Part shown: piece after piece, positions 4,950 to 40,168 of the stretch
How positions within the stretch are numbered: the stretch's first letter is position 1
Layout of the letters: every line of letters begins with the position of its first letter
Assembly: GCA_040751795.1 (NCBI GenBank)
Contig: JBFMHR010000005.1
Coordinates: forward strand, 192,001-256,000
Reading direction: 5' to 3'
Length of the DNA stretch: 64,000 nt
Source of the DNA: Thermoplasmatota archaeon
GTDB lineage: Archaea > Thermoplasmatota > Thermoplasmata > UBA10834
Notes under the pieces: model-generated
Databases searched by the model: none
Told to the model about the DNA's origin: nothing
What the model saw: the letters and a program-made list of their open reading frames with translations, nothing else
Translations under genes and position numbers: made by a program

Positions 4950-7900
4950 TCACTCCGGCAGCGCGGCGTCGCCGCCGTCCTTGCGGGCGGGGCCGTTCAG
5001 GCCCCTGCCGCGCCTGCTGTTCTCCCTGACGAAGGACTGCAGGAGCATCCCGACGCCGGCGAAGTCCGTGTCTATGTCGCCCGTCCAGTTCTCTATCCTC
5101 TTGCGGTAGATCTTCTCCACCTTGGCCAGGAACCCGGCCATCCTATCCTCGATCGCCTCGGGCGCGTCGCCCTCGTAGACGACGGCCATGTATGTCGTCC
5201 TGCCCCTCCTCACCAGGACCTTGTAGTGCTCGAAGCCGAAGCTCCTCAGCCCGTCCTGGGTCTTCGCCATCGAGTCCTCGACGAAGTTCAGCACGGCCGT
5301 CAGCATCCCGCTCAGGACGTCCTCGTCCACCTCGCCCTTGACCTTCTCGGCGGCCCTCCCGATGAGGAAGCCGTCGTTGTGTATGAGCATGATGTCCCTG
5401 ACCACGAAGGGCTCCTTCCTGAACCTGATCGCGACCGCGAACGAGCCCGCCGCGACGCCGGCCATGGCCAGCATCCCGACCATGAACCACGCGTCCTCGC
5501 CTCCGCCCTCCGCCCTGACGACCGTCACCGTGAGGGTGTCGGTGTCGCGCAGCCCGTCGGGGTCCGAGGCCGTCACGGCGATGCTCACGGTCCTGCTCTG
5601 CTCCCCGTCCGCCAGGAAGTCCCCCGGGAAGTGGAGGAGCAGCACACCCTCGAGCACCGTGGCGTAGGCGCCGTGGTCGCCGGAGAGGGTGAATGTCAGG
5701 CCCTGCTCGTGCCTGTCGGGGTCGACCGCGCTCTCCCTGAGGTCCACCGCGACCTGCACGCCGACCGTGGCCTCGACCCCCTCCTCGAAGTCCAGCGAGG
5801 GGGCGTCGGGCACGGACTGCACGGTGAGCTCCGCCATCGACTCGACGAGCGCCCCGCCGGGGTCCGTGGCCCTCACCACGAACCACAGGTTGCCGTTCCA
5901 GTTGGCCTCGGTGGAGAACACGACGGTCCAGGCCCCCTGCGCGTCCTCCGAGGCGGCGGCAGAGACGGCGTCTTCCACGGCGAACACGGTGAACGTGAGG
6001 TCCTCCCCGTCCGCGTCGTCGAAGTAGGACCTGAGGTCCCCGCTCGACGGGTAGGGCATCGGGACGTCCTCCTGGAATGAGTGCATGGGCAGGGCGGCCG
6101 ACGAGGGCGGGGTGTTGTCCCCGACGGAGACCTCGATGGCCCAGCTGTCCGAGAGCTCCCCGTCGCTGACCGTGATCCCGAGGTACACCACCTGGCCGAC
6201 CATCTCCGCGGGGTAGAGCAGCGTCAGGACCATGCCGGCGGGCACGGCGTGGGCGTCGTCGGTCGCGACGTGCAGGTCGTCGAGGTCGTTGTCCGGGTCC
6301 GAGACGTACCAGGTGAGGTCGAACTCGAACCCGAGGTCGTGCATGACCCGGAGGTCCGGCACCCCCTCGATCACAGGGGCCTGGTTGACCCTGTGGACGA
6401 CGATGGTGCCCACGCTCTCGACCCTCGCCCCGGAGGCGTCCGTCGCGCTGAATATGATGTAGTCGCTCCCGTACCAGTCCATCGGGGCGAAGATGCTGAC
6501 TATGTTGCCGGCGCTGATGTTGATGAGCACGTGGGTGTAGCCGTAGGTGAAGAACAGCTCGTCCCCGTCCGGGTCGACGAAGTAGTCGTCCAGGTCGAAG
6601 ACGTCCACGCGGGTCTCGCCCTGGTACATGTCGACGTCGGGGACGGCGTCTATGGCGACGGGGACGTTGTTGTCCGAGACGGTGACCTGGACGACGGTCG
6701 ACGCCGTGGCGCTCCCGTCGCTCACCGTGACGACGACCGCCTGGTCCGTCCCGTTGAGCTCCTGGGGGTACAGCATGTGCAGCGCCAGCCCTTCAGCGGA
6801 GACGTGGGCGGAGCTCGCGTCGTCCACCGACAGGGAGAGGTCCCCCTCGTCGTCGTCGACGTCGTGGACGTAGTACCGCATGTTGTAGACGTAGAGGACC
6901 CCGTAGCGGACCTCCAGCGGCTCCACGGCGTCCACGGTCGGCCAGTCGTTCACCGCTATCACGTGGACGGTGAGGTTGGTGCTCGCCGACAGCCCGTCGG
7001 GGTCGACGACGTGCAGGCCCAGGACGTCGGTGCCCGAGAGGTCCTGCTTGGTGCTGAGGGTGAGGGTGAGGTACCCCGTCCTGTTCTCGCCGCTGACCTG
7101 GACGACGGCGTCGTTGGTGACGTACCACCTGAGCTCGCTGTCCAGGTGCACCGAGTCCTGGACGTAGGGCGACAGGTCGATCGTCCACGAGCCTGAGTCC
7201 TCGTACTTGAGCTGGTCCGGGACGCTCTGTACGAACGTCGGCGCGTTCGCCGTGTGGGTCACGGTGAGGTGGAGCGACGCCTGCAGGCCCCCTGCGCTCA
7301 CGCGCAGGTACCCGTCCGAACCGGCCTCGCCCACGTACAGCCTGACCGAGGAGCCGTTGTGCCTGTTCAGGGAGCCCAGCTCGGGGTCGACCTCCCAGAG
7401 GAACTCCAGGTCGGTGACCGGGTTGTCGAAGTCGTCGGTCGCGAGGGCGGTGAAGGTCTGCTCGGAGTCCTCGGGGACGAAGGACGGGGCCGGGGTGATC
7501 GTCAGCTCGGATGCTGGTGCGGGGGTGACGGTGATGGGCGTGCTGAGGCCGTACGCCCCCTGCGCCTCGGCCACGATGATGATCGTCTCCGCCTCGGTGC
7601 AGGCCTCGTTGGGCACGGTGACAGAACCGCCGGTGGTGATGTAGGCCGAGGTGACCGCGAGCTCGGTGTCGATGTCGTCGGGCGAGCCGGAGTCCACGGC
7701 GGTGAGCTCCACGGGCCCGGTCCAGTGGACCATGGTCGTGTTGGACCCGTCCTTGACATAGACCGTGACCGGGAAGGTCTCACCCGCCACCGCGGTCTCG
7801 GGCACGACGACGACCAGGTATGAGACCGCCGTGCCGTGCATCGCGGAGACAGAGTGGACCCTCGGCGTGGAGAGGGTGTCGAAGGTCTGCAATGATGCCC

Positions 7901-31942: not shown

Positions 31943-32132
31943 GTGTGCTCAGACCTCGGCCTGCTGAAACGTGTAGGCCCATATATCTGTTTGCGGTGGT
32001 GCGCCAGTATGCGCGCTGCCCCGCGCCCCGCCGGCGCGCCCGGCCAGGCCAGTCGCATGTTGTGGGAACCTATATAAACGGCTATTCCAATAGTTGCCGA
32101 CACTTGTATTACCCCCGGAGAGGTGGCTCAGT

Positions 32133-32942
32133 TTGGCTAACGAGGTCGAGAAGGTCGCTTGCCCTGTCTGTGGCAAGATCGTCGGAGTGAACGTCTCATC
32201 GTGCCCGTACTGCGGCGCCGAGTTCGAAGCGGACGAGGAGGTGGAGGTGACGGGCAAGGCCGGATCGCCCGCCAACGCCGTCACCAGCGAGGAGGCCGAG
32301 GAGGTGGCCTGCCCGGTGTGCGGCACGCTCGTCGGGCTCGACGTCATCGTCTGCCCCAAGTGCGGCGCCGAGTTCGAGGCGGAGGAGATCGAGGAGGTCA
32401 TAGAGGTCGAGGAGAAGGCCACCTTCGAGGAGGAGCCCGAGCCCGCCCCGGCGAAGCCGAAGCGCGCGGAGTCTTCCAAGCCGAAGCCGAAGGCCAAGCC
32501 GGCCAGGGAGGAGCCCTCGGAGGGGTCGCCCGCCAGCATCCTGGACCTCAGGGTGCTCGGCCTCGCGCTCATCATGCTCGGAGTCGTCGGGACGCAGATC
32601 GCGCTCTTCGCGGACTGGTACTGGGAGTGGGTCCCGGCCATCGAGGACAACATGGTCCTCTTCGTCGTCATCCCCGTCGTGATCCTCGTCGTTGGGCTGG
32701 CCGTGTTCATGGTGATGAAGAAGGCCGCGTCGGGAGGCAGGGACGTCTCGGGGATGGCCCCGGGGGCAGCCCTGGCCCTGTTCATGTTCGGCATCATCGC
32801 GCTGATCATAGTCGTCCTCTGGGACCCGGTCAACGCGGCGCTGAAGGACTCGCCCGCGACGGTCGCGGGCGGCTTCGCGGTCGCGCTCGTGCTCGGGATC
32901 GTGTTCATGGTCCTGGGGGCGAGGCGCGCGGCGTCCGCCTGA
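32133..32942 (+). CDS. Membrane protein with two N-terminal zinc ribbons, a charged linker and 4 TMs
   Basis: CPVCG...CPYCGAEFE and CPVCG...CPKCGAEFE; TTG start after GAGGTG. Confidence 0.8.
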   Translation: MANEVEKVACPVCGKIVGVNVSSCPYCGAEFEADEEVEVTGKAGSPANAVTSEEAEEVACPVCGTLVGLDVIVCPKCGAEFEAEEIEEVIEVEEKATFEEEPEPAPAKPKRAESSKPKPKAKPAREEPSEGSPASILDLRVLGLALIMLGVVGTQIALFADWYWEWVPAIEDNMVLFVVIPVVILVVGLAVFMVMKKAASGGRDVSGMAPGAALALFMFGIIALIIVVLWDPVNAALKDSPATVAGGFAVALVLGIVFMVLGARRAASA

Positions 32943-33081
32943 TGCCGCGGGCCCGGACAAACCCTCAAAACCCTTCAGGCGCGTCTTCCCGACAGGCAGC
33001 CGATACGAAATTCGTACTCCGACGTCCGAGTCCGCAATGTTTGATATACGATGGCGCCGTTGGAGGTTGGACACGGACGCG

Positions 33082-33223
33082 TGGCAGGCCTCGATTGGTG
33101 TGGTGGGGTTGGTGCCAAGGCGGTGTCGGGTGGGCGTGATGGGCGCCCCTCGGTGCATTTTTCAGCGGCTCGGGGGGCGGCGGCCGCTTCCGGGGGCACG
33201 CGAGCTCGGTCCGGGGCCTGCCA
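33082..33223 (+). ncRNA. Candidate structured non-coding RNA
   Basis: Closing stem TGGCAGGCCTCG/CGGGGCCTGCCA; inner GTGCC/GGCAC; hairpins GGGCGT/GCGCCC and AGCGGC/GCCGCT; many G-U pairs; TATA-like TTTGATATA at ~33040. Confidence 0.35.
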
Positions 33224-33374
33224 GTGCTCATGTATTCCGGTGACCAAATAATTATGTACCATTATGTCCATATGTGTGGTGCCGAGCGGAAGGGATGGAC
33301 CAGCCGGCGCCCGAGGGCGTCCCCGCACGTGTCTCTCCCCGAAGCGAGAGCTGGATGAATGGAGTGTGTGACCA

Positions 33375-33908
33375 ATGGAGAAGAAGATACTCACGATAAT
33401 GGTGGCGCTGATAGTTGTCGCCGCCATCGTGGTCGCGTTCGTCATGATCGCGGCCGGAGGCATGAAGACGGCCGGGGGCTTCACGAGCCTCTTCAACGAG
33501 CTCGAGAACCCTAACCCCAGCGTGACCTATGGCGAGTACCTGGAGTTCCCCGACGACTGGGAGGCGCTAGACATCGTCACCGTCAGCGACACCATAGTCG
33601 ACATGGACCCGAGGGGCGAGGAGCTCATCGGGGGCGTGACCGTCTACACGGTCAGGCTGTACTTCGTCTACATCGACGACAAGTGGTCGGACCCCGACGA
33701 GGGCTCGCTGTTCTACGTGCCCACCACGGAGCACAGCAGCGGCTACTTCACGGTGAACCACGGGCTGTTCTGGCTGGACGTGTCGTCCCCCGAGAACATC
33801 GCGGCGCAGTACGACATAGGCGACGTCATAGAGCTCAAGACGGCCCTGGATGCCAACGAGGACAACAGCAACACCCTGTCCTTCAGCAGTTGGCTCCTCG
33901 CGGACTAG
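33375..33908 (+). CDS. Hypothetical N-terminally anchored extracellular protein
   Basis: MEKK plus hydrophobic helix; acidic beta-rich body; genome-like codon usage. Confidence 0.75.
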   Translation: MEKKILTIMVALIVVAAIVVAFVMIAAGGMKTAGGFTSLFNELENPNPSVTYGEYLEFPDDWEALDIVTVSDTIVDMDPRGEELIGGVTVYTVRLYFVYIDDKWSDPDEGSLFYVPTTEHSSGYFTVNHGLFWLDVSSPENIAAQYDIGDVIELKTALDANEDNSNTLSFSSWLLAD

Positions 33909-34031
33909 GCGGCCGGACGTGCCCCGCCCCCCCCTTCAAACCTCTTCCCCCTGTTCTCACCGCACCGACGGCCGCGAGGCCGGCCGTATTTCAAGCTACT
34001 GACCCCCCTCCCCGGAGGCCGAGGCCAGCAG

Positions 34032-34049
34032 GCGAAAGGGTATTATAAG
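34032..34049 (+). promoter_or_regulatory. Archaeal BRE-TATA promoter of the NG-repeat/TPR gene pair
   Basis: GCGAAAGGG-TATTATAAG. Confidence 0.65.
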
Positions 34050-34213
34050 CAGCTAAGCACTCTTCACCTCCGAGAGCAACCGCTAAGATGCCATGGGCTT
34101 AGCGTCGCTATATCGGGCTGACTGAACGAGAGTGCTTTTGGGGGAGTGAGGGAGTAGCGGCCCGCATGTAGGCACGCCTATCCCCCTCGTGCATCCGGTA
34201 AGGAGCAGGAGCG

Positions 34214-36862
34214 ATGGGCTCAAGCCGCCGCCAGGGCAAGGCGCAACCCCCCGCGCCCCCAGGTTCAAGGGGACTCACCAATGGCAATGCTCTTGCCGGC
34301 CCGCCGCGCGTGAGGGTCAAGGCCGTCCCGAACGGCCGCGTGAACGGCCTCACGAACGGGCGGAAGGACGGGATCACGAACGGCACCAGGCCCGCCGTCG
34401 CCAATGGCGCGCAGCGCCCGCGCAGCAGCGGGAGGACCAACGGGCTCGTCAACGGCCTCGCCCGGGGCCTCACCAACGGCCGCACGAACGGCCTGACGAA
34501 CGGGGTCCCCCAGGGGCAGAGCGCCCCGGGCCGCTCCCCCAGGCGCAGCGGCCGCATCAACGGCCTGGTCAACGGCCTCACCAACGGACTGACGAACGGC
34601 CTCACGAACGGGTTGACCAACGGCCTCACCAACGGGATGACCAACGGCCGCGTCAACGGCAAGGGGGCCGTGAACGGCTTCAGGTTGTCCACGAGGTCCA
34701 GGCGGGTAGCCGACCGCCCCACGGGGGTCCGGAGGAAGATGCTCCTCTTCGCCGCCGTGGTCGCCATCATCCTCTTCATACCCTACGCGCTGGTCCACAC
34801 CTTCCCCCCCGACGAGGTCGAGGTCGACGGGTATTTCATGGACTGGACGGAGGCGACGGTCTACGAGGACACCCCGGACTCGGAGAACCCCGACGTGTCG
34901 CTCACGGCGTACGCCATGAAGGCGAGCCCGCGCGCGTCCTACTTCTACATGGCCACCGAGGGCTCCATGATGAACGGCGCAGACGGGGGCGCCGACGGCT
35001 TCTACATATTCGTCGACCGCGACGGGGACACCGGCACTGGCTACCTGGTGAGGGGCCTCGGCGCGGACCACATGATCGCCGTCATCGGCTGGAACGGCTC
35101 AGCCGAGCTGGCGGCAAGCTACGTCTTCACCCAGACCGCGGAGCAGGACGACTACGGAGGGTTCAGGCAGTCATCGGACCCCATGGTTGCGTTCCGGGAC
35201 GGAGAGATGGAGATCGGCACGGGCCTCATAACCGGCCCGGCCACCGAGGTCGCCATCGTCGCCCGCCACACGGACGTACCCGATGACTGGTCAGAGGTGA
35301 ACTTTGCGTGCTCCGGCCCCGCGGTCCGGGTTTCTCAACACTATGAGGCCCCCGAGGTGACGGCCGGGCTCACGGACGAGCTCATGCTGAGCATCGACTT
35401 CTCGGCCAAGGGCTCCGCCGTTGACCTCGAGGGCCTCAACCTAAACCTCTTGGGGACCGCCACGGCCACGGACGTGAAGGCCGTGCGCGGTTCAGAGCTC
35501 CTCGGGACCAGCCACGACGGGATGGTGAACTTCTTCCGCCCCGTCCGGCTGGTCCCGGGCGCGCTCGTCAGGGTCTCCGTGCTCGCGTCCTTCGAAGAGG
35601 GCACGGAGGGGCGGTCGTTCGGGCTGAGCCTCGACGAGGACGGCGGCCCGGTGTTCGCTGAGAACACCACCTTCTCCCTGACCTCCTACCAGGAGGGGGC
35701 CAGGATGACGTACGTCTCCGGCCGGCCAGCCGCCATAGCGATCGACGGCGCGTTCGCGGACTGGGACTACACGGTCCCGGTCGAGGACGGGCTGGGCGAC
35801 GTCGTCCTCGCCGGCACCGGCGTGGTCGACAACGCCGACGTGGACATCACGGAGGTGGCGTCATGGGCCGCCGAGTCCAGCGCCTATTTCTACATGTCCG
35901 TCGACGGGCGGATGCTCGGCGGAACGAACCTCCCCGGTTCGCTGGCCAGGTGGGCGGACGCCCCGGAGCCGGGCGGATCGATGCCCAACGCGACCGAGGA
36001 GGAGCACATGTTCGGCGCGGACTTCGCATACGTGTTCGTCGACCTGGACGACGACGAGGCCACAGGGTTCTGGATCGGGGGCGCGGAATCCGCGGTCATG
36101 GTCGCGGGCAAGGACGGCCGCCTGCTCCTCGCCAACGCCTACCGCTACACCGACGGCTCGTGGTCCTTGGCCGGGCCGGTCGAGGCCGCCACCGACCGGG
36201 CCAGGATCGAGGTCCGCTCCTCGTTCGAGGACCTCGGGATGGGTTCGGACAGGGCGTACAACGTGACGTTCGTGGCCCAGGACTGGCGCGGCTCGGAGGA
36301 CGGCGTCGTCGCATCCCTCCCGGCGGGCGTGCTGTCGGGGTCGAGGACGTTCGGGGGGATCATCCTGAACGAGCTATACTCGACCAACCCCACGAAAGCG
36401 CTCGACTGGTTCGAGCTGTACAACACCTCCACCGTGTCGATCGACATATCCGGCTGGACGCTGTACGTCGACGGCGTCTTGAAGTTCACCATCCCGGACG
36501 GCACCATCCTGGACTCCGGGGATTTCTATCTCTCACCGTTCCTCAGCTTCCTGAGGGGGACCTCCTACGTCATCTACGACGACTCCGACCCCCCGGTCCT
36601 GATAGACTCGGTGACCGTGCCCACATGGACCGTCAAGTCGTACGGCCGCATCGGGACGCCGGACGACGGCTACGGCACATGGGCGTGGATGACGCCCACT
36701 CCGGGGGAGATCAACATCGGCCAGACGCCGATCCCGGAGTTCGGGGACATACTAGTCCCGCTAGCGATAGTACCATTAGTCCTCTTCGCCATTAGGCGTA
36801 CCCGAGGCGTACGCGGGAAGGAGCGAGGGGATTCAGAAGGGAAGTCCGATGGAAGTACCTGA
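34214..36862 (+). CDS. Surface protein: cytoplasmic (NG-L-T)n repeats, TM, duplicated DOMON/CBM9-like domains, lamin-tail domain and PEF-CTERM sorting signal
   Basis: SD AGGAG; 21 NG dipeptides in the first ~155 aa; RRK then TM; two (I/V)DG.F.DW...YFYM...Y.FVD.D.D..TG domains; IILNEL...DWFELYN...DISGWTL; IPEF-TM-RR. Confidence 0.85.
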   Translation: MGSSRRQGKAQPPAPPGSRGLTNGNALAGPPRVRVKAVPNGRVNGLTNGRKDGITNGTRPAVANGAQRPRSSGRTNGLVNGLARGLTNGRTNGLTNGVPQGQSAPGRSPRRSGRINGLVNGLTNGLTNGLTNGLTNGLTNGMTNGRVNGKGAVNGFRLSTRSRRVADRPTGVRRKMLLFAAVVAIILFIPYALVHTFPPDEVEVDGYFMDWTEATVYEDTPDSENPDVSLTAYAMKASPRASYFYMATEGSMMNGADGGADGFYIFVDRDGDTGTGYLVRGLGADHMIAVIGWNGSAELAASYVFTQTAEQDDYGGFRQSSDPMVAFRDGEMEIGTGLITGPATEVAIVARHTDVPDDWSEVNFACSGPAVRVSQHYEAPEVTAGLTDELMLSIDFSAKGSAVDLEGLNLNLLGTATATDVKAVRGSELLGTSHDGMVNFFRPVRLVPGALVRVSVLASFEEGTEGRSFGLSLDEDGGPVFAENTTFSLTSYQEGARMTYVSGRPAAIAIDGAFADWDYTVPVEDGLGDVVLAGTGVVDNADVDITEVASWAAESSAYFYMSVDGRMLGGTNLPGSLARWADAPEPGGSMPNATEEEHMFGADFAYVFVDLDDDEATGFWIGGAESAVMVAGKDGRLLLANAYRYTDGSWSLAGPVEAATDRARIEVRSSFEDLGMGSDRAYNVTFVAQDWRGSEDGVVASLPAGVLSGSRTFGGIILNELYSTNPTKALDWFELYNTSTVSIDISGWTLYVDGVLKFTIPDGTILDSGDFYLSPFLSFLRGTSYVIYDDSDPPVLIDSVTVPTWTVKSYGRIGTPDDGYGTWAWMTPTPGEINIGQTPIPEFGDILVPLAIVPLVLFAIRRTRGVRGKERGDSEGKSDGST
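34271..34678 (+). repeat. Degenerate 12-bp tandem repeat encoding NG(L/R/M)(T/V)
   Basis: AACGGCCTCACC / AACGGACTGACG / AACGGGTTGACC etc.; synonymous variation between units; longest uninterrupted run ~34559-34660. Confidence 0.9.
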
Positions 36863-38831
36863 TGCACCCAAAGGCGACTCTGAGAGGATGACGGAGAGCC
36901 TGTCGCTCACCGAGCTGCTCCGGCCCATCGGCTCGCTGGGGGAGGCCTCGAGGCCGTTCGTGCCCGTGCTGGGCGGGCCGAGGCTGTACCTGCTCCTCCT
37001 GTACGCGGCCGTGGTCATCGGCGCCTCGGTCGAGTTCTTCATGAGCCAGGAGCTCTGGTACGGGAGCTGGGAGGTCTACAACACATACGTCTTCGTGGTC
37101 TCCGGCTTCTTCGTCGCCATGGGAATAGCCATGCTGTTCCTGACCGCCGGGAAGGCCCCGGACGACGGGTTCAAGCTCCCGCTCTCGAAGGAGACCATGT
37201 GGGTCACGGGCCTCTTCACCCTCGTCACGACCGGCGTGGGCCTGGTCGCGCTCGGCGCCGACATAGGCGCATGGGCCGTGCTGCTCAGCGTCCTCATGGT
37301 CTCGGGCTTCGTCCTGATGGTGATGGGCATGAGGTCCATCTCAAACAGGGACAGCTTCTGGCTGGCCGTGTTCGGCTTCGGGGTGATACTGATGGTGCTG
37401 ATGCCCGTCCACGAGGCGTTCGACCTCGCCAGGAGCGAGGAGGGGGAGTACCCGTTCACCGGCCTGAACCTCTTCCTGATGGCCGCGGGCATGTCCACCT
37501 CGCTCCTCTCGCTGCAGTTCATGAAGACGAGGGACGGCTTCCTGGGGGCGTGGCTGATAGGCGCCATGGCCCTGTTCCTGCTGGCGTTCCACGAGCAGAC
37601 CGGGATCGTGTCGACGGGCACATACGAGCCCTACGACCGGAGCCTGGCCCTGATAGGGGTCGTCTTCTCGTTCCTGCCCCTGTTCATGTACCTCTGGAAG
37701 GAGAGGGAGTACTACTCGATGTGGTCGAAGCTGCGGAGGGCCGTGCACCTGATGCGCACCGGCGACTTCCCCGGCGCCCTGGTCCAGGCCGACGCCGCGG
37801 TACAGGAGAGCTCCGAGGCCGGCGTCTCGCACAAGTTCGCCGTCCCCTGGACCGTCAAGGGGGACGTCCTCTACCACATGAAGGAGTTCTCGAAGGCGAA
37901 GACCGCCTACGACCTCGCCCTCGAGATAGACCCCGACGACAGCACGACCTGGTGCCACCTGGCGAACATGTACGCCTTCGAGGGCAAGAGGGCCCTGGCC
38001 CTCGGCGCCTACGACAGGGCCATCCAGGCCGACCAGAGGAACTCGACCGCGTGGAACAACAAGGGCGCGGTCTTCAGCACACTGGACTGGCCCGAGGAGG
38101 CCCTCGCGTGCTTCAGCAGGGCCGTCGCCCTCGACCCGAGGAACTTCGACGCCTACATGAACCTGGCCAGGACCTACGTCAAGCTCGGCAGGAGCGACGA
38201 CGCGGTGATGAACTACCAGAAGGCCATAGAGATCAGGCCCAGGAGCAGGCTCGCGAGGGACGGCCTCCAGAGGGAGTTCTACAAGGGCATGTGCCTGGAC
38301 CAGATCCGCGGCTGGGAGGAGATGGGCCTCGATACCGCCCCGCTCAGGGCGCTCCTCGAGGAGGACCCCGCCAACTTCGAGCAGCGGTCCAAGCAGTTCC
38401 TCTCGGACATCATGGAGCAGAAGGCCCAGCTGGTCATCGGGGGCGGCGCGGACAAGTTCGACGTGAACGCCGCGATCAAGGCCGTGCTCACCGTGACCGC
38501 GGACAAGGGCGCCACCCTGGAGCGGATGATGAAGGAGACCAACCTCACGAGCGACCAGCTCGTCCTGCCGATCGCCCTCCTGATGAAGACGGAGAAGCTG
38601 CACTTCAAGAGGTCCGGGGCGCACGAGGTCTACGTGTCGAAGGGCAAGGCCCCCGACGCGCCGCCCCAGCCCCCGCCCGAGGAGGAGCCGCCCAAGAGGG
38701 TGTTCCCCCTCAGGAAGGAGAGGCCGCAGGAAGAGGAGGACGAGGAGCAGGTCGAGCCGACCGCCTCGGTCCTCGTGTTCGGCGGCAGGAAGAAGCCCAA
38801 GAAGAAGCGGCAGACGGGGCCCGGGTCCTAG
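36849..38831 (+). CDS. Polytopic membrane protein (~9 TM) with TPR repeats and a C-terminal wHTH-like domain
   Basis: Hydrophobic N-half; W..KG..L.....F..A..AYD.ALEIDP and AWNNKG...L....EAL..F..A..LDP TPRs; tail ATLERMMKETNLTSDQLVLPIALLMKTEKLHF; 14-bp overlap with the upstream gene. Confidence 0.8.
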   Translation: MEVPDAPKGDSERMTESLSLTELLRPIGSLGEASRPFVPVLGGPRLYLLLLYAAVVIGASVEFFMSQELWYGSWEVYNTYVFVVSGFFVAMGIAMLFLTAGKAPDDGFKLPLSKETMWVTGLFTLVTTGVGLVALGADIGAWAVLLSVLMVSGFVLMVMGMRSISNRDSFWLAVFGFGVILMVLMPVHEAFDLARSEEGEYPFTGLNLFLMAAGMSTSLLSLQFMKTRDGFLGAWLIGAMALFLLAFHEQTGIVSTGTYEPYDRSLALIGVVFSFLPLFMYLWKEREYYSMWSKLRRAVHLMRTGDFPGALVQADAAVQESSEAGVSHKFAVPWTVKGDVLYHMKEFSKAKTAYDLALEIDPDDSTTWCHLANMYAFEGKRALALGAYDRAIQADQRNSTAWNNKGAVFSTLDWPEEALACFSRAVALDPRNFDAYMNLARTYVKLGRSDDAVMNYQKAIEIRPRSRLARDGLQREFYKGMCLDQIRGWEEMGLDTAPLRALLEEDPANFEQRSKQFLSDIMEQKAQLVIGGGADKFDVNAAIKAVLTVTADKGATLERMMKETNLTSDQLVLPIALLMKTEKLHFKRSGAHEVYVSKGKAPDAPPQPPPEEEPPKRVFPLRKERPQEEEDEEQVEPTASVLVFGGRKKPKKKRQTGPGS

Positions 38832-39715
38832 ATCTGGACCTTCCCCTTCTTCAGCAGCGTCTGCAGCGCCTCGTCCGCGGCCCTGTCCTTCTTGTCCCTG
38901 TCGTCCAGGGCCTTCCGGGTGGCGAGGTTGACGTCCCTTATGGCGTTCCTCTCCTCCCGGACCTCGGCGCGCTTCTGGTCCTTGATCTCTATGACCTTCC
39001 CGCGGAGCTCCATCGCCTTCTGGTGGACGGCGTCGGCCTCCTCCCTCAGCTTGATGAACTCCTCGTGCTTCTTGTTGGCCGCCCCGGAGAGGGCCGCGAT
39101 CTCCTTCGCGTGGGTCTGGGCCTCCTCGTGGAACCTGTGCTGCTCCTCCGAGAGGCGCACGACCTCCGAGTGCTCCTTGTCCGCGAACTTGAAGAGGGCG
39201 TCTATGCTCGCGTCGACGTCCTTGACCTCCTTCTGGATCTTCTCCTGCTCCGCGAGGATCTTCTTCAGCCTCTCGACGTCGGCGGCGCGGGCCTTGATCT
39301 TCTCGAGGAGGTCCCTCTCCTCCGCGAGCTTGAGCGGGACGGTCTGCTGCCTCAGCTCCAGGGCCTTGATGTCCGCCTCGGCGACCCTGACCTCGGTCCT
39401 GAGGTCGCCCATGGGCTTCCCCCTGAGCTTCCTCTTGAACTCGATGAGCTCCTTGGCCTTGGCCTGGAGCTCGTCCCTCTTCTTCTTGTGGGCCCGCATC
39501 TCCGCGACCGCTGCGTCCCTCTTGTCCCGGGCCGCGTTCATCGGCCCCTGCAGCTCCTTCCTCTTGTCGTGTAGCGAGTCCCTCTCGGACCTGGCGATCG
39601 CCGCGAGCTCGTTTATCTCGTCGCGCTTGTTCAGGAACGCCCTGAACTTCAGCTCCGCGCTGTCGAGCTCGCTGATCTTCTTCTTCTTCGATGGAGACTC
39701 TCTCTTGGTCTTCAT
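38828..39715 (-). CDS. Archaeal coiled-coil protein (COG1340-like)
   Basis: KRDE.N...RD.L; LE..QQT..L....E..L..KI; ADAVH; KKGKV ending; promoter-like CTTATAAC upstream. Confidence 0.8.
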   Translation of the reverse strand: MKTKRESPSKKKKISELDSAELKFRAFLNKRDEINELAAIARSERDSLHDKRKELQGPMNAARDKRDAAVAEMRAHKKKRDELQAKAKELIEFKRKLRGKPMGDLRTEVRVAEADIKALELRQQTVPLKLAEERDLLEKIKARAADVERLKKILAEQEKIQKEVKDVDASIDALFKFADKEHSEVVRLSEEQHRFHEEAQTHAKEIAALSGAANKKHEEFIKLREEADAVHQKAMELRGKVIEIKDQKRAEVREERNAIRDVNLATRKALDDRDKKDRAADEALQTLLKKGKVQI

Positions 39716-40168
39716 TCGGACCCGCCAGGCCAGATAATACGGCAGGGGATAATGGCACCGGGTTATAAGGGTTGCTCAGGTCCTCGGGATGGTTCAGGCC
39801 CGCCGGAGCGCGCGCAAGCCGTCAGCTCCTCGATGCTGAAGGCAGGCATCCCATGGAATGGCCGCAGACAGGCTACGCGCGAAAGCAAGTGCTATATACT
39901 CCGGGTATCTAGCCTCATCCATCAACTCCCCAGTATGACTCCCTCTTGGAATCGGAGGAATGCTGGGTTCCATTTCATCGAGACTGGATCGTGGTCTTCA
40001 GGGCGGGGGGACTGGTGCAGTGGAGACGATTGCATTCATGGACGGTGATGATCTCCATCATAGCACCCCCGTCCATGGTCTTCGCCCAGGGCCAGTCGAC
40101 CGCGCGACGCTAACCCGATTGCCCACCCTCACAGGGCCGCGACAATCCGCTGCGGTGAGACATCCAAG

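Follow-up and report, generated by a model that had tools for sequence, protein, structure and literature searches.

A co-inherited and once fused gene pair of Thermoplasmata encodes a putative Asn-Gly repeat surface protein and a polytopic TPR/winged-helix protein

A gene pair inherited together

We analyzed two overlapping genes, here called gene 1 and gene 2, in a 64,000-nucleotide stretch of a Thermoplasmatota archaeon genome (assembly GCA_040751795.1, contig JBFMHR010000005.1, positions 192,001 to 256,000; hereafter the window). Gene 1 encodes a predicted surface protein that starts with a long Asn-Gly (NG) repeat, and gene 2 encodes a protein with eight predicted transmembrane (TM) helices, tetratricopeptide repeats (TPRs) and a C-terminal winged helix. 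The pair is real: its two members are inherited together and have once been fused into one chain. We tentatively favor reading it as a dedicated envelope module, in which a doubly anchored surface protein is combined with an obligate polytopic partner; of the explanations considered this is the most plausible one. The host genome comprises 2.05 Mb with 64.7% G+C, and the database relatives of the window proteins are labelled Thermoplasmata, Methanobacteriota or Thermoplasmatota archaeon. The pair is laid out as follows.

34214..36862, + strand: gene 1, open reading frame (ORF) of 882 aa, predicted type II (N-in) surface protein
36849..38831, + strand: gene 2, 660 aa; 8-TM domain, TPR, helical linker, winged helix, variable linker and conserved C-terminal peptide
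36849..36862, + strand: 14-nt overlap between the start of gene 2 (36849) and the stop of gene 1 (36862)

The original prediction, made from the DNA sequence alone, had described this 14-bp overlap correctly, and its condition that the two genes be linked in relatives was borne out. The comparison set for the pair consisted of 41 related genomes, which as kin are not independent of one another. The TM domain of gene 2 was found at E ≤ 1e-41 in 22 of them, and these are the same 22 genomes that hold gene 1 matches at E ≤ 1e-100, either full-length or contig-split. The other 19 genomes lack both genes, and what they hold of gene 1 is at most a match at paralogue level. In 21 of the 22, gene 2 follows immediately downstream of gene 1 on the same strand; in the remaining genome (G022) the two genes are on different contigs.

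This exact match of presence and absence argues against the distinctly unlikely alternative that the two are envelope genes which share a transcript but are otherwise independent of each other, physically and functionally. Such an alternative draws on the fact that most of the adjacency falls within one family with the whole block syntenic: in seven same-family loci, a block of up to ten genes around the pair is syntenic as far as each locus reaches. It is opposed by the situation in G025, a genome of a different family, where the 14-nt overlap is kept in a different genomic context. Eight further genes of the window, taken as queries, gave no match at that locus. Annotated around it are instead a C11 peptidase, a PurM-like gene, a CitMHS transporter and an ABC-2 permease, yet genes 1 and 2 remain next to each other, again with an overlap of 14 nt (L017: 7655..10132 and 5773..7668).

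A natural fusion likewise speaks against mere co-transcription. In another lineage, a gene-1-like and a gene-2-like protein form a single chain, seen in P0179 (1559 aa, two contigs) and P0210 (1562 aa, one contig), which come from different sources. The fused chain runs from NG repeats through a TM helix, the ectodomain, a lamin-tail domain (LTD, residues 599–660) and IPEF-helix-RLRRK into the TM domain (residues 768–1055), the TPRs and the winged helix, and its C-terminus ends in ASILFFRRKK. The join passes through the PEF-type helix and its basic tail, which is consistent with a cytoplasmic N-terminus of gene 2. If the PEF tail is cleaved in P0179 and P0210, a sortase-type cut would part the two halves.

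The Asn-Gly repeat of gene 1 and its translation

The N-terminal region of gene 1 comprises two features.

34214..34738, + strand: N-terminal segment, residues 1–175, predicted cytoplasmic; polybasic (L/R/K)-T-N-G tetrapeptide repeats, predicted disordered
34739..34795, + strand: signal-anchor TM helix, residues 176–194; hydropathy 2.79, AlphaFold2 (AF2) helix at 172–195

The first 175 residues contain 21 NG motifs, compared with 2 in the other 707 residues, and 30 Lys and Arg residues (K+R) to only 2 Asp and Glu (D+E). The NG spacing is mostly four residues or a multiple of four, and at the DNA level the repeat is a 12-nt tandem array (TRF period 12/24) at window positions 34321–34660. The segment closes with an invariant pre-TM motif, G..NG.G..NGFR, after which VRRK leads into the 19-residue hydrophobic helix. 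An alignment of 41 gene 1 sequences served both for the AF2 model and for the identification of invariant columns. In the model, residues 1–167 have no secondary structure, with a predicted local distance difference test score (pLDDT) of about 30–37; in the alignment, the repeat and pre-TM columns G141, G145, N148, G149, N154, G155 and R157 are invariant in 41 of 41 sequences.

Twelve orthologous gene 1 loci from relatives, with ectodomain identities of 43–72%, were read for the repeat frame. The sense frame is open in all twelve, over 100–220 codons upstream of the TM helix. The relatives' repeats are of the (L/R/K)TNG type with variable copy number, framed by a conserved N-terminus, 'SPPxSPGSRG(L/F)TNG', and a conserved pre-TM motif, 'VNGxGAVNGFR(L/I)S'. 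NG is retained across overall identities of 32–72% among the orthologous loci, and 'GR(V/I)NG(F/L)(T/I)NG' repeats are still present in orthologues at 31–34% identity. In the ten of the twelve loci that were measurable, the N-terminus is 100 to 199 residues long and contains 8–22 NG. The copy-number variation of the 12-nt array between close relatives (loci L002–L012) suggests expansion and contraction by slippage.

It is very improbable that the NG region is untranslated, with gene 1 starting at the downstream Met at 34739 or with the antisense ORF at 34108–34779 (− strand) being the real gene. This view can point to a GGAGG-like motif that, by direct reading, also precedes 34739, and to a G+C content at third codon positions (GC3) of 0.93 in both the sense frame and the antisense ORF; GC3 cannot separate the two because both frames share wobble positions. 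The sense frame is nevertheless open in every locus read, and the N-terminal and pre-TM motifs are conserved at the protein level down to 32% overall identity, whereas the antisense frame is broken by stops in six of ten measured loci (two loci with non-ATG starts were left out). Because of these three observations we accepted the upstream start. Paralogues, moreover, place the same repeat between zinc ribbons and a TM helix, inside long ORFs. The untranslated view is thus largely refuted: the start at 34739, named in the original prediction as what would undo it, is rejected on the comparative data, and gene 1 is translated from the upstream ATG. The antisense ORF, 223 aa with RP(L/F)V repeats, is held open by the codon structure of the NG array, and we rejected it as a repeat artefact.

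We refer to the repeat together with its position next to the membrane as the NG collar. Being disordered, polybasic, nearly free of acidic residues and family-wide, its predicted properties fit a membrane-surface spacer or brush, or a binding platform. High Asn-Gly content would make such a collar unusually prone to deamidation. A similarity to the FliH GxxxG-repeat model was dismissed as compositional, with only the stretch 112–154 matching at 28.7 bits against a cut-off of 293. No other ORF of the own genome contains at least three consecutive xxNG tetrapeptide units. In the literature searched, archaeal NG repeats are not described, and matches to 'NG repeat' concern mollusc shell-matrix proteins and TALE repeats.

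The NG collar as a family hallmark

Gene 1 has 447 homologues at E ≤ 1e-5. Full-length orthologues are present in relatives, and those in Thermoplasmata records carry the name 'lamin tail domain-containing protein'. One orthologue, P0038, is named 'archaellum component FlaF' by its source, a name without support in the analyses made.

A C-terminus made up of IPEF, a helix and a basic cluster is shared by seven ORFs of the own genome, and four of these are gene 1 paralogues of 1027–1338 aa. All four start with predicted cytoplasmic zinc ribbons and a long low-complexity linker, after which come 7–19 NG in hexapeptide repeats (xGxxNG), an Arg cluster and a TM helix, and none of the four has a gene-2-like neighbor. 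Five of the seven PEF-tailed ORFs start with a long, predicted cytoplasmic segment followed by NG repeats, so the expectation that sorted proteins normally lack a long cytoplasmic repeat at their start, on which the original prediction had drawn, fails in this lineage. In 50 of the 51 database paralogues listed (P0070–P0120), the 120 residues that lead up to the first strongly hydrophobic segment contain 7 or more NG. Their N-terminal cytoplasmic parts contain zinc ribbons, HhH, TPR or KaiC-like ATPase domains, and in 13 of the 51 listed, TPR Pfam domains stand in one chain with NG repeats, ectodomain and LTD.

These comparisons define a wider Thermoplasmata family with the predicted order zinc-ribbon/HhH/TPR/KaiC, NG repeat, TM helix, ectodomain, LTD and, in some members, DUF11. 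Its ectodomain is homologous to that of gene 1 (25–34% identity), its NG repeats likewise stand directly before the TM helix, and part of the family has a PEF-type tail. Gene 1 differs in having no folded cytoplasmic domain and in its repeat unit, which is the tetrapeptide LTNG where the own-genome paralogues have the hexapeptide xGxxNG; no other member is paired with an 8-TM/TPR/winged-helix gene. From their distribution in sequence, the NG collar and a long, predicted cytoplasmic N-terminus are hallmarks of a large Thermoplasmata family and not peculiar to the gene pair. As the repeat occurs family-wide, including in four paralogues without a gene-2-like neighbor, it is not a code specific to the TPR of gene 2, as had originally been proposed. 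BLASTP of the cytoplasmic part of gene 2 against paralogues P0083 and P0070 gave only weakly aligning TPR stretches, and the winged-helix tail is absent there, which rules out gene 2 as a mere split-off copy of the paralogues' cytoplasmic part.

Ectodomain and PEF-type tail of gene 1

Beyond the signal anchor, gene 1 is divided into four modules and a C-terminal tail.

34811..35314, + strand: ectodomain module 1, residues ~200–367, sequence-homologous to module 3
35315..35722, + strand: beta-sandwich module, residues ~368–503, defined by VIA structural matches
35723..36331, + strand: ectodomain module 3, residues ~504–706, CBM9/DOMON-like fold
36338..36712, + strand: LTD, residues ~709–833, defined by PF00932 and VIA
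36731..36862, + strand: PEF-type C-terminal tail; IPEF, hydrophobic helix, basic cluster and 18 further residues (direct reading)

The AF2 model of gene 1 has a mean pLDDT of 73.8, and its ectodomain is all-beta, mostly at pLDDT 85–96. The 647-residue middle part is acidic (K+R 33, D+E 99). Under the positive-inside rule, the contrast between this part and the basic N-terminus, together with the fusion, leads us to predict that the repeat lies in the cytoplasm and the ectodomain outside.

The two ectodomain halves are homologous to each other (BLASTP E 7e-12, 31% identity over 144 columns), residues 200–340 corresponding to module 3, and neither half matches a Pfam family at E ≤ 10. Taken alone, module 1 gave only Ig-like structural matches with Z < 8 in VIA. 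The beta-sandwich module, matched over residues 366–503, resembles the N-terminal module of sialidases (8gn6_A, Z 10.5, root-mean-square deviation (rmsd) 3.0 over 120 residues; 6mnj_A, Z 10.4) and also matches the CLIPPER domain 9ifr_A (Z 8.8). Module 3 shares the fold of the CBM9/DOMON-like superfamily, with matches to the ethylbenzene dehydrogenase gamma subunit (2ivf_C, Z 11.8, rmsd 3.5 over 171 residues), CBM9 of Thermotoga xylanase 10A (1i82_A, Z 11.4, rmsd 3.4 over 156 residues), 4jpq_B (Z 10.5) and glucodextranase (1ulv_A, Z 9.1); at 7–14% identity and without a Pfam match, the likeness of residues 504–706 is in fold alone. The sole Pfam match of gene 1 is PF00932 at residues 713–772 (E 1.2e-8, 35.7 bits against a cut-off of 34.3), which the orthologues also carry, and the LTD matches 4q1z_A (Z 8.8) and lamin B1 (7dtg_A, Z 8.0, rmsd 2.2 over 85 residues). 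A Foldseek search of the PDB using the complete model was uninformative, yielding no more than generic multi-Ig adhesin chains at TM-scores of at most 0.21.

The C-terminus reads IPEF-GDILVPLAIVPLVLFAI-RRTRGVRGK, with an AF2 helix at 847–864, and thus has the three-part layout of PEF-CTERM proteins (TIGR03024/TIGR03762). With this, the anatomy originally described for gene 1 (basic NG-rich N-terminus, RRK and TM helix, two homologous ectodomains, LTD and IPEF tail) was confirmed throughout by ORF analysis, BLASTP, Pfam and AF2. According to PMC5244752, which cites Haft et al. 2012, archaeosortase C recognises PEF-CTERM. Alongside its seven PEF-tailed ORFs, the own genome contains one exosortase-family ORF (C45), located outside the window, whose best model, matched below its cut-off, is archaeosortase C (TIGR03762, E 2.3e-22); similar sub-threshold ArtC-like matches occur in 31 of the 41 relatives. 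Gene 1 differs from PEF-CTERM proteins in beginning with a 175-residue, predicted cytoplasmic repeat and a signal anchor instead of a short signal peptide. The literature search found no description of PEF-CTERM proteins in Thermoplasmata.

Architecture of gene 2

Four features were delimited in gene 2.

36984..37697, + strand: 8-TM domain, residues 46–283, from hydropathy, K/R distribution (32 orthologues) and invariant columns
37836..38258, + strand: TPR domain, residues ~330–470, predicted cytoplasmic; Pfam TPR_1, E 2.1e-27
38463..38636, + strand: winged-helix domain, residues 539–596; AF2 elements H-H-H-E-E, Foldseek, VIA
38754..38828, + strand: C-terminal peptide EPTASVLVF and polybasic tail, residues 636–660, from invariant columns; 3′ of a variable Pro/Glu/Lys linker

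The hydropathy profile reveals seven clear TM helices and a weakly hydrophobic one at 207–227. Across the alignment of 32 orthologues, the loops proposed to lie inside average 5.2, 2.75, 1.66, 1.0 and 5.16 K+R, and those proposed to lie outside average 0.06, 0, 0.84 and 1.03. Both this distribution, through the positive-inside rule, and the fusion predict that gene 2 has its two termini, and with them the TPR and the tail, in the cytoplasm (N-in/C-in). The 8-TM domain is rare: a 13-sequence profile retrieved 36 cluster representatives at E ≤ 1e-3 among 1.84 billion. We scanned all of these but 13, which were close orthologues and short pieces. In each of the 23 scanned, TPRs follow the 8-TM domain on its C-terminal side; several have N-terminal zinc ribbons and two end in DUF835. 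The zinc ribbons at one end and the TPRs at the other fit a placement of both ends inside the cell. The original prediction had given gene 2 about nine TM helices, about five TPRs and a winged-helix-like tail; the winged-helix fold stood, and the counts were corrected to eight TM helices and about four TPRs, Pfam TPR_1 matching four stretches at residues ~334–466.

The predicted topology places several conserved residues (H188, E189, N207, H248, E249, Y262 and D263) where the helices end on the outer side. H188/E189 is nearly invariant, and H248, E249, Y262 and D263 are invariant. Such a cluster raises the possibility, which we consider unlikely but serious, that gene 2 is a maturation factor: an 8-TM metal-dependent enzyme whose outward His/Glu/Asp site would act on gene 1 at the membrane surface. 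Its target could be the PEF-proximal segment or the attachment of a glycan or lipid, with the TPR and winged helix holding or regulating the enzyme. The fusion, in which the PEF helix directly precedes the bundle, would agree with this, as would the persistence of the pair, PEF-type tails included, in three genomes (G024, G025 and G026) in which no archaeosortase C or exosortase-signature match was found; at 88–90% completeness of these genomes, absence is not implied. On the other side, H188/E189 becomes H-Q in the G025 orthologue, and a search with residues 1–300 placed the 8-TM domain in no family of Pfam or NCBIfam, enzyme or other. The ESM Atlas gave no usable match for the same residues. 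Exosortases and archaeosortases use a catalytic Cys. The invariant columns of gene 2 contain no Cys, and PF09721 and TIGR04178 were not matched, so an exosortase or archaeosortase identity was rejected.

The tail (residues 470–660) is confined to orthologues, with 53 matches, all of one architecture. Its AF2 model (mean pLDDT 71.7) consists of three helices followed by the winged helix (local pLDDT ~81–89). The best 50 VIA rows for the tail are all winged-helix domains, with Z 7.8–9.3, led by 9j89_D (Z 9.3, rmsd 1.7 over 62 residues) and 4hw0_A (Z 9.1). In Foldseek the best match is the winged helix of Rpc34 at E 5.7e-3, with none at E ≤ 1e-3. A Pfam scan at E ≤ 10 of the tail, of both ectodomain halves and of the repeat returned noise only (DUF3391, 0.43; Yae1_N, 4.6e-4, below cut-off), and a PDB sequence search with the gene 2 alignment was dominated by the TPR columns and uninformative on the tail. 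A PCI-like reading of the TPR plus winged helix was dropped, as no PCI family match appeared in the Pfam scan. All 32 aligned sequences keep T638, A639, S640, L642 and F644 of the C-terminal peptide unchanged, and its motif occurs nowhere else in the own genome.

The original prediction went further and saw in the NG repeats multivalent ligands for the gene 2 TPR, with a DNA-binding winged helix completing an outside-to-inside regulator. We regard this as improbable. The topology it called for is the one predicted, with the repeat and the gene 2 TPR and tail in the same compartment, the cytoplasm; many paralogues hold TPRs and NG repeats in one chain; and the structural neighbors of the winged helix include the DNA binders Sso10a-2, NolR and MarR. 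Yet protein-binding winged helices (Rpc34, ESCRT-II, cullin WHB, Rpa2) match equally well, the invariant residues of the putative recognition helix (L573, P574, A576, L577 and L578) are hydrophobic, and a winged helix tethered to an 8-TM protein could reach DNA only at the membrane. The family-wide NG repeats, present without a gene 2 partner, and the paralogue TPRs, only weakly aligned with that of gene 2 and lacking a winged-helix tail, also speak against it. A complex prediction of gene 2 residues 296–610 with gene 1 residues 100–175 returned a score of 0.02 against a mark of 0.32, for which the tool gave 'no answer', and weighs neither way.

Genomic surroundings

Gene 1 is preceded by a 305-nt intergenic region (33909–34213), in which direct reading shows a TATA-like TATTATAAG at ~34043–34051 and AGGAG/GGAG immediately 5′ of the gene 1 ATG. 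A scan of 33000–40000 with Rfam gave no match. Among the sequencing runs listed for this DNA there was none of RNA, and every DNA run had a word share of at most 0.08. The neighboring genes are listed below.

32094–32942, + strand: 282 aa; two zinc ribbons (Zn_ribbon_3, E 1.8e-10), acidic linker, ~4 TM helices
33375–33908, + strand: 177 aa, N-terminal TM anchor; no Pfam or NCBIfam family
38828–39715, − strand: DUF7121 coiled-coil protein (E 3.2e-11), convergent with gene 2; the ORF ends overlap by 4 nt (38828–38831)

The zinc-ribbon gene lies two genes upstream of gene 1 in six of the seven same-family loci, the seventh locus starting too close to cover the position. Its product and the gene 1 paralogues share a common theme, a zinc ribbon on a membrane protein. 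The gene at 33375–33908 adjoins gene 1 upstream in seven of seven same-family loci and, by tblastn, was not found beside the pair in G025. The DUF7121 gene is kept downstream within the same family, and it too is not kept in G025.

A possible envelope module

Under the dedicated-module reading, a single transcript with overlapping frames would give rise to both proteins, probably by coupled translation. Gene 1 would be inserted as a type II protein, with the NG repeat under the membrane, one TM helix, and the acidic ectodomain displayed outside. Its PEF-type helix would re-enter the membrane as a second anchor, or would be exchanged for a lipid by an archaeosortase-C-like enzyme. Gene 2 would be the obligate partner, with an 8-helix bundle carrying the outward His/Glu/Asp cluster and with the TPR, winged helix and peptide in the cytoplasm. 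The gene 1 helices may pack against the gene 2 bundle within the membrane, and the TPR, winged helix and peptide may tie the surface protein to cytoplasmic partners. We therefore picture a tether across the membrane, structural or adhesive in nature, and not signalling in the classical sense.

A number of observations weigh against this reading. Physical contact between the two proteins is something that we infer. Adjacency within the own family adds little, because the whole block is syntenic, and the independent support comes from two genomes of a second family (G025 and G026) and one fused cluster. The repeat does not need gene 2, as shown by the paralogues without a gene-2-like neighbor, and the C-terminal peptide is missing from the G025 orthologue, the most distant one read. 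The modelled ectodomain folds are of generic binding or scaffold types that name no ligand. The evidence for sorting is also imperfect. The NCBIfam PEF-CTERM model (TIGR03024) matched neither the whole of gene 1 at E ≤ 0.1 nor its last 52 residues at E ≤ 10, a negative that is limited by HMMER filters, which may drop very short weak matches. The 18-residue extension past the basic cluster is unusually long, the archaeosortase-C-like ORF reaches 80 bits against a cut-off of 100, and the three pair-carrying genomes without a sortase match, named above, belong here as well.

The individual parts are known folds, and the logic of a sorting tail is known. We know of no PEF-CTERM protein with a dedicated 8-TM/TPR partner, and the literature search found neither such a protein nor a gene pair of this kind. 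PrsT, the TPR protein of the XrtA/PEP-CTERM system (TIGR02917), is a secreted lipoprotein. It is likewise a TPR protein encoded beside a protein with a sorting-type tail, but the similarity of gene 2 to it is that of generic TPRs (51 bits against a cut-off of 312), and gene 2, unlike PrsT, is polytopic with its TPR predicted inside the cell. Regulators of the ToxR/CadC type also carry a winged helix on an integral membrane protein. Theirs is N-terminal, of the OmpR type and beside a single TM helix, whereas the winged helix of gene 2 stands at the C-terminal side, behind eight TM helices and the TPRs, and falls into no sequence family.

We also considered, as a quite improbable combination, that the 8-TM bundle is an unrecognised membrane-embedded processing enzyme for the PEF tail of its neighbor, an alternative to archaeosortase, while the NG collar, TPR, winged helix and peptide couple the surface protein to a sub-membrane structure. 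If true, this would amount to a trans-envelope linkage in Thermoplasmata. In that part of the literature that was accessible, the family-wide NG collar, the rare 8-TM/TPR unit and its obligate pairing with a PEF-tailed subfamily appear undescribed.

The envelopes of uncultivated Thermoplasmata are little known. The present analysis defines a large, lineage-specific family of predicted doubly anchored surface proteins with a membrane-proximal, putatively cytoplasmic Asn-Gly repeat, in which one subfamily appears to have given up its own cytoplasmic domains, their place being taken by a co-inherited 8-TM/TPR/winged-helix partner with a gene of its own. Should the two proteins fail to bind, the pair would be no more than an ordinary envelope-protein operon; should they bind, it would be a tractable case in which to study the link between a surface protein of an archaeon and the inside of the cell, or would reveal a new step in PEF-tail maturation.

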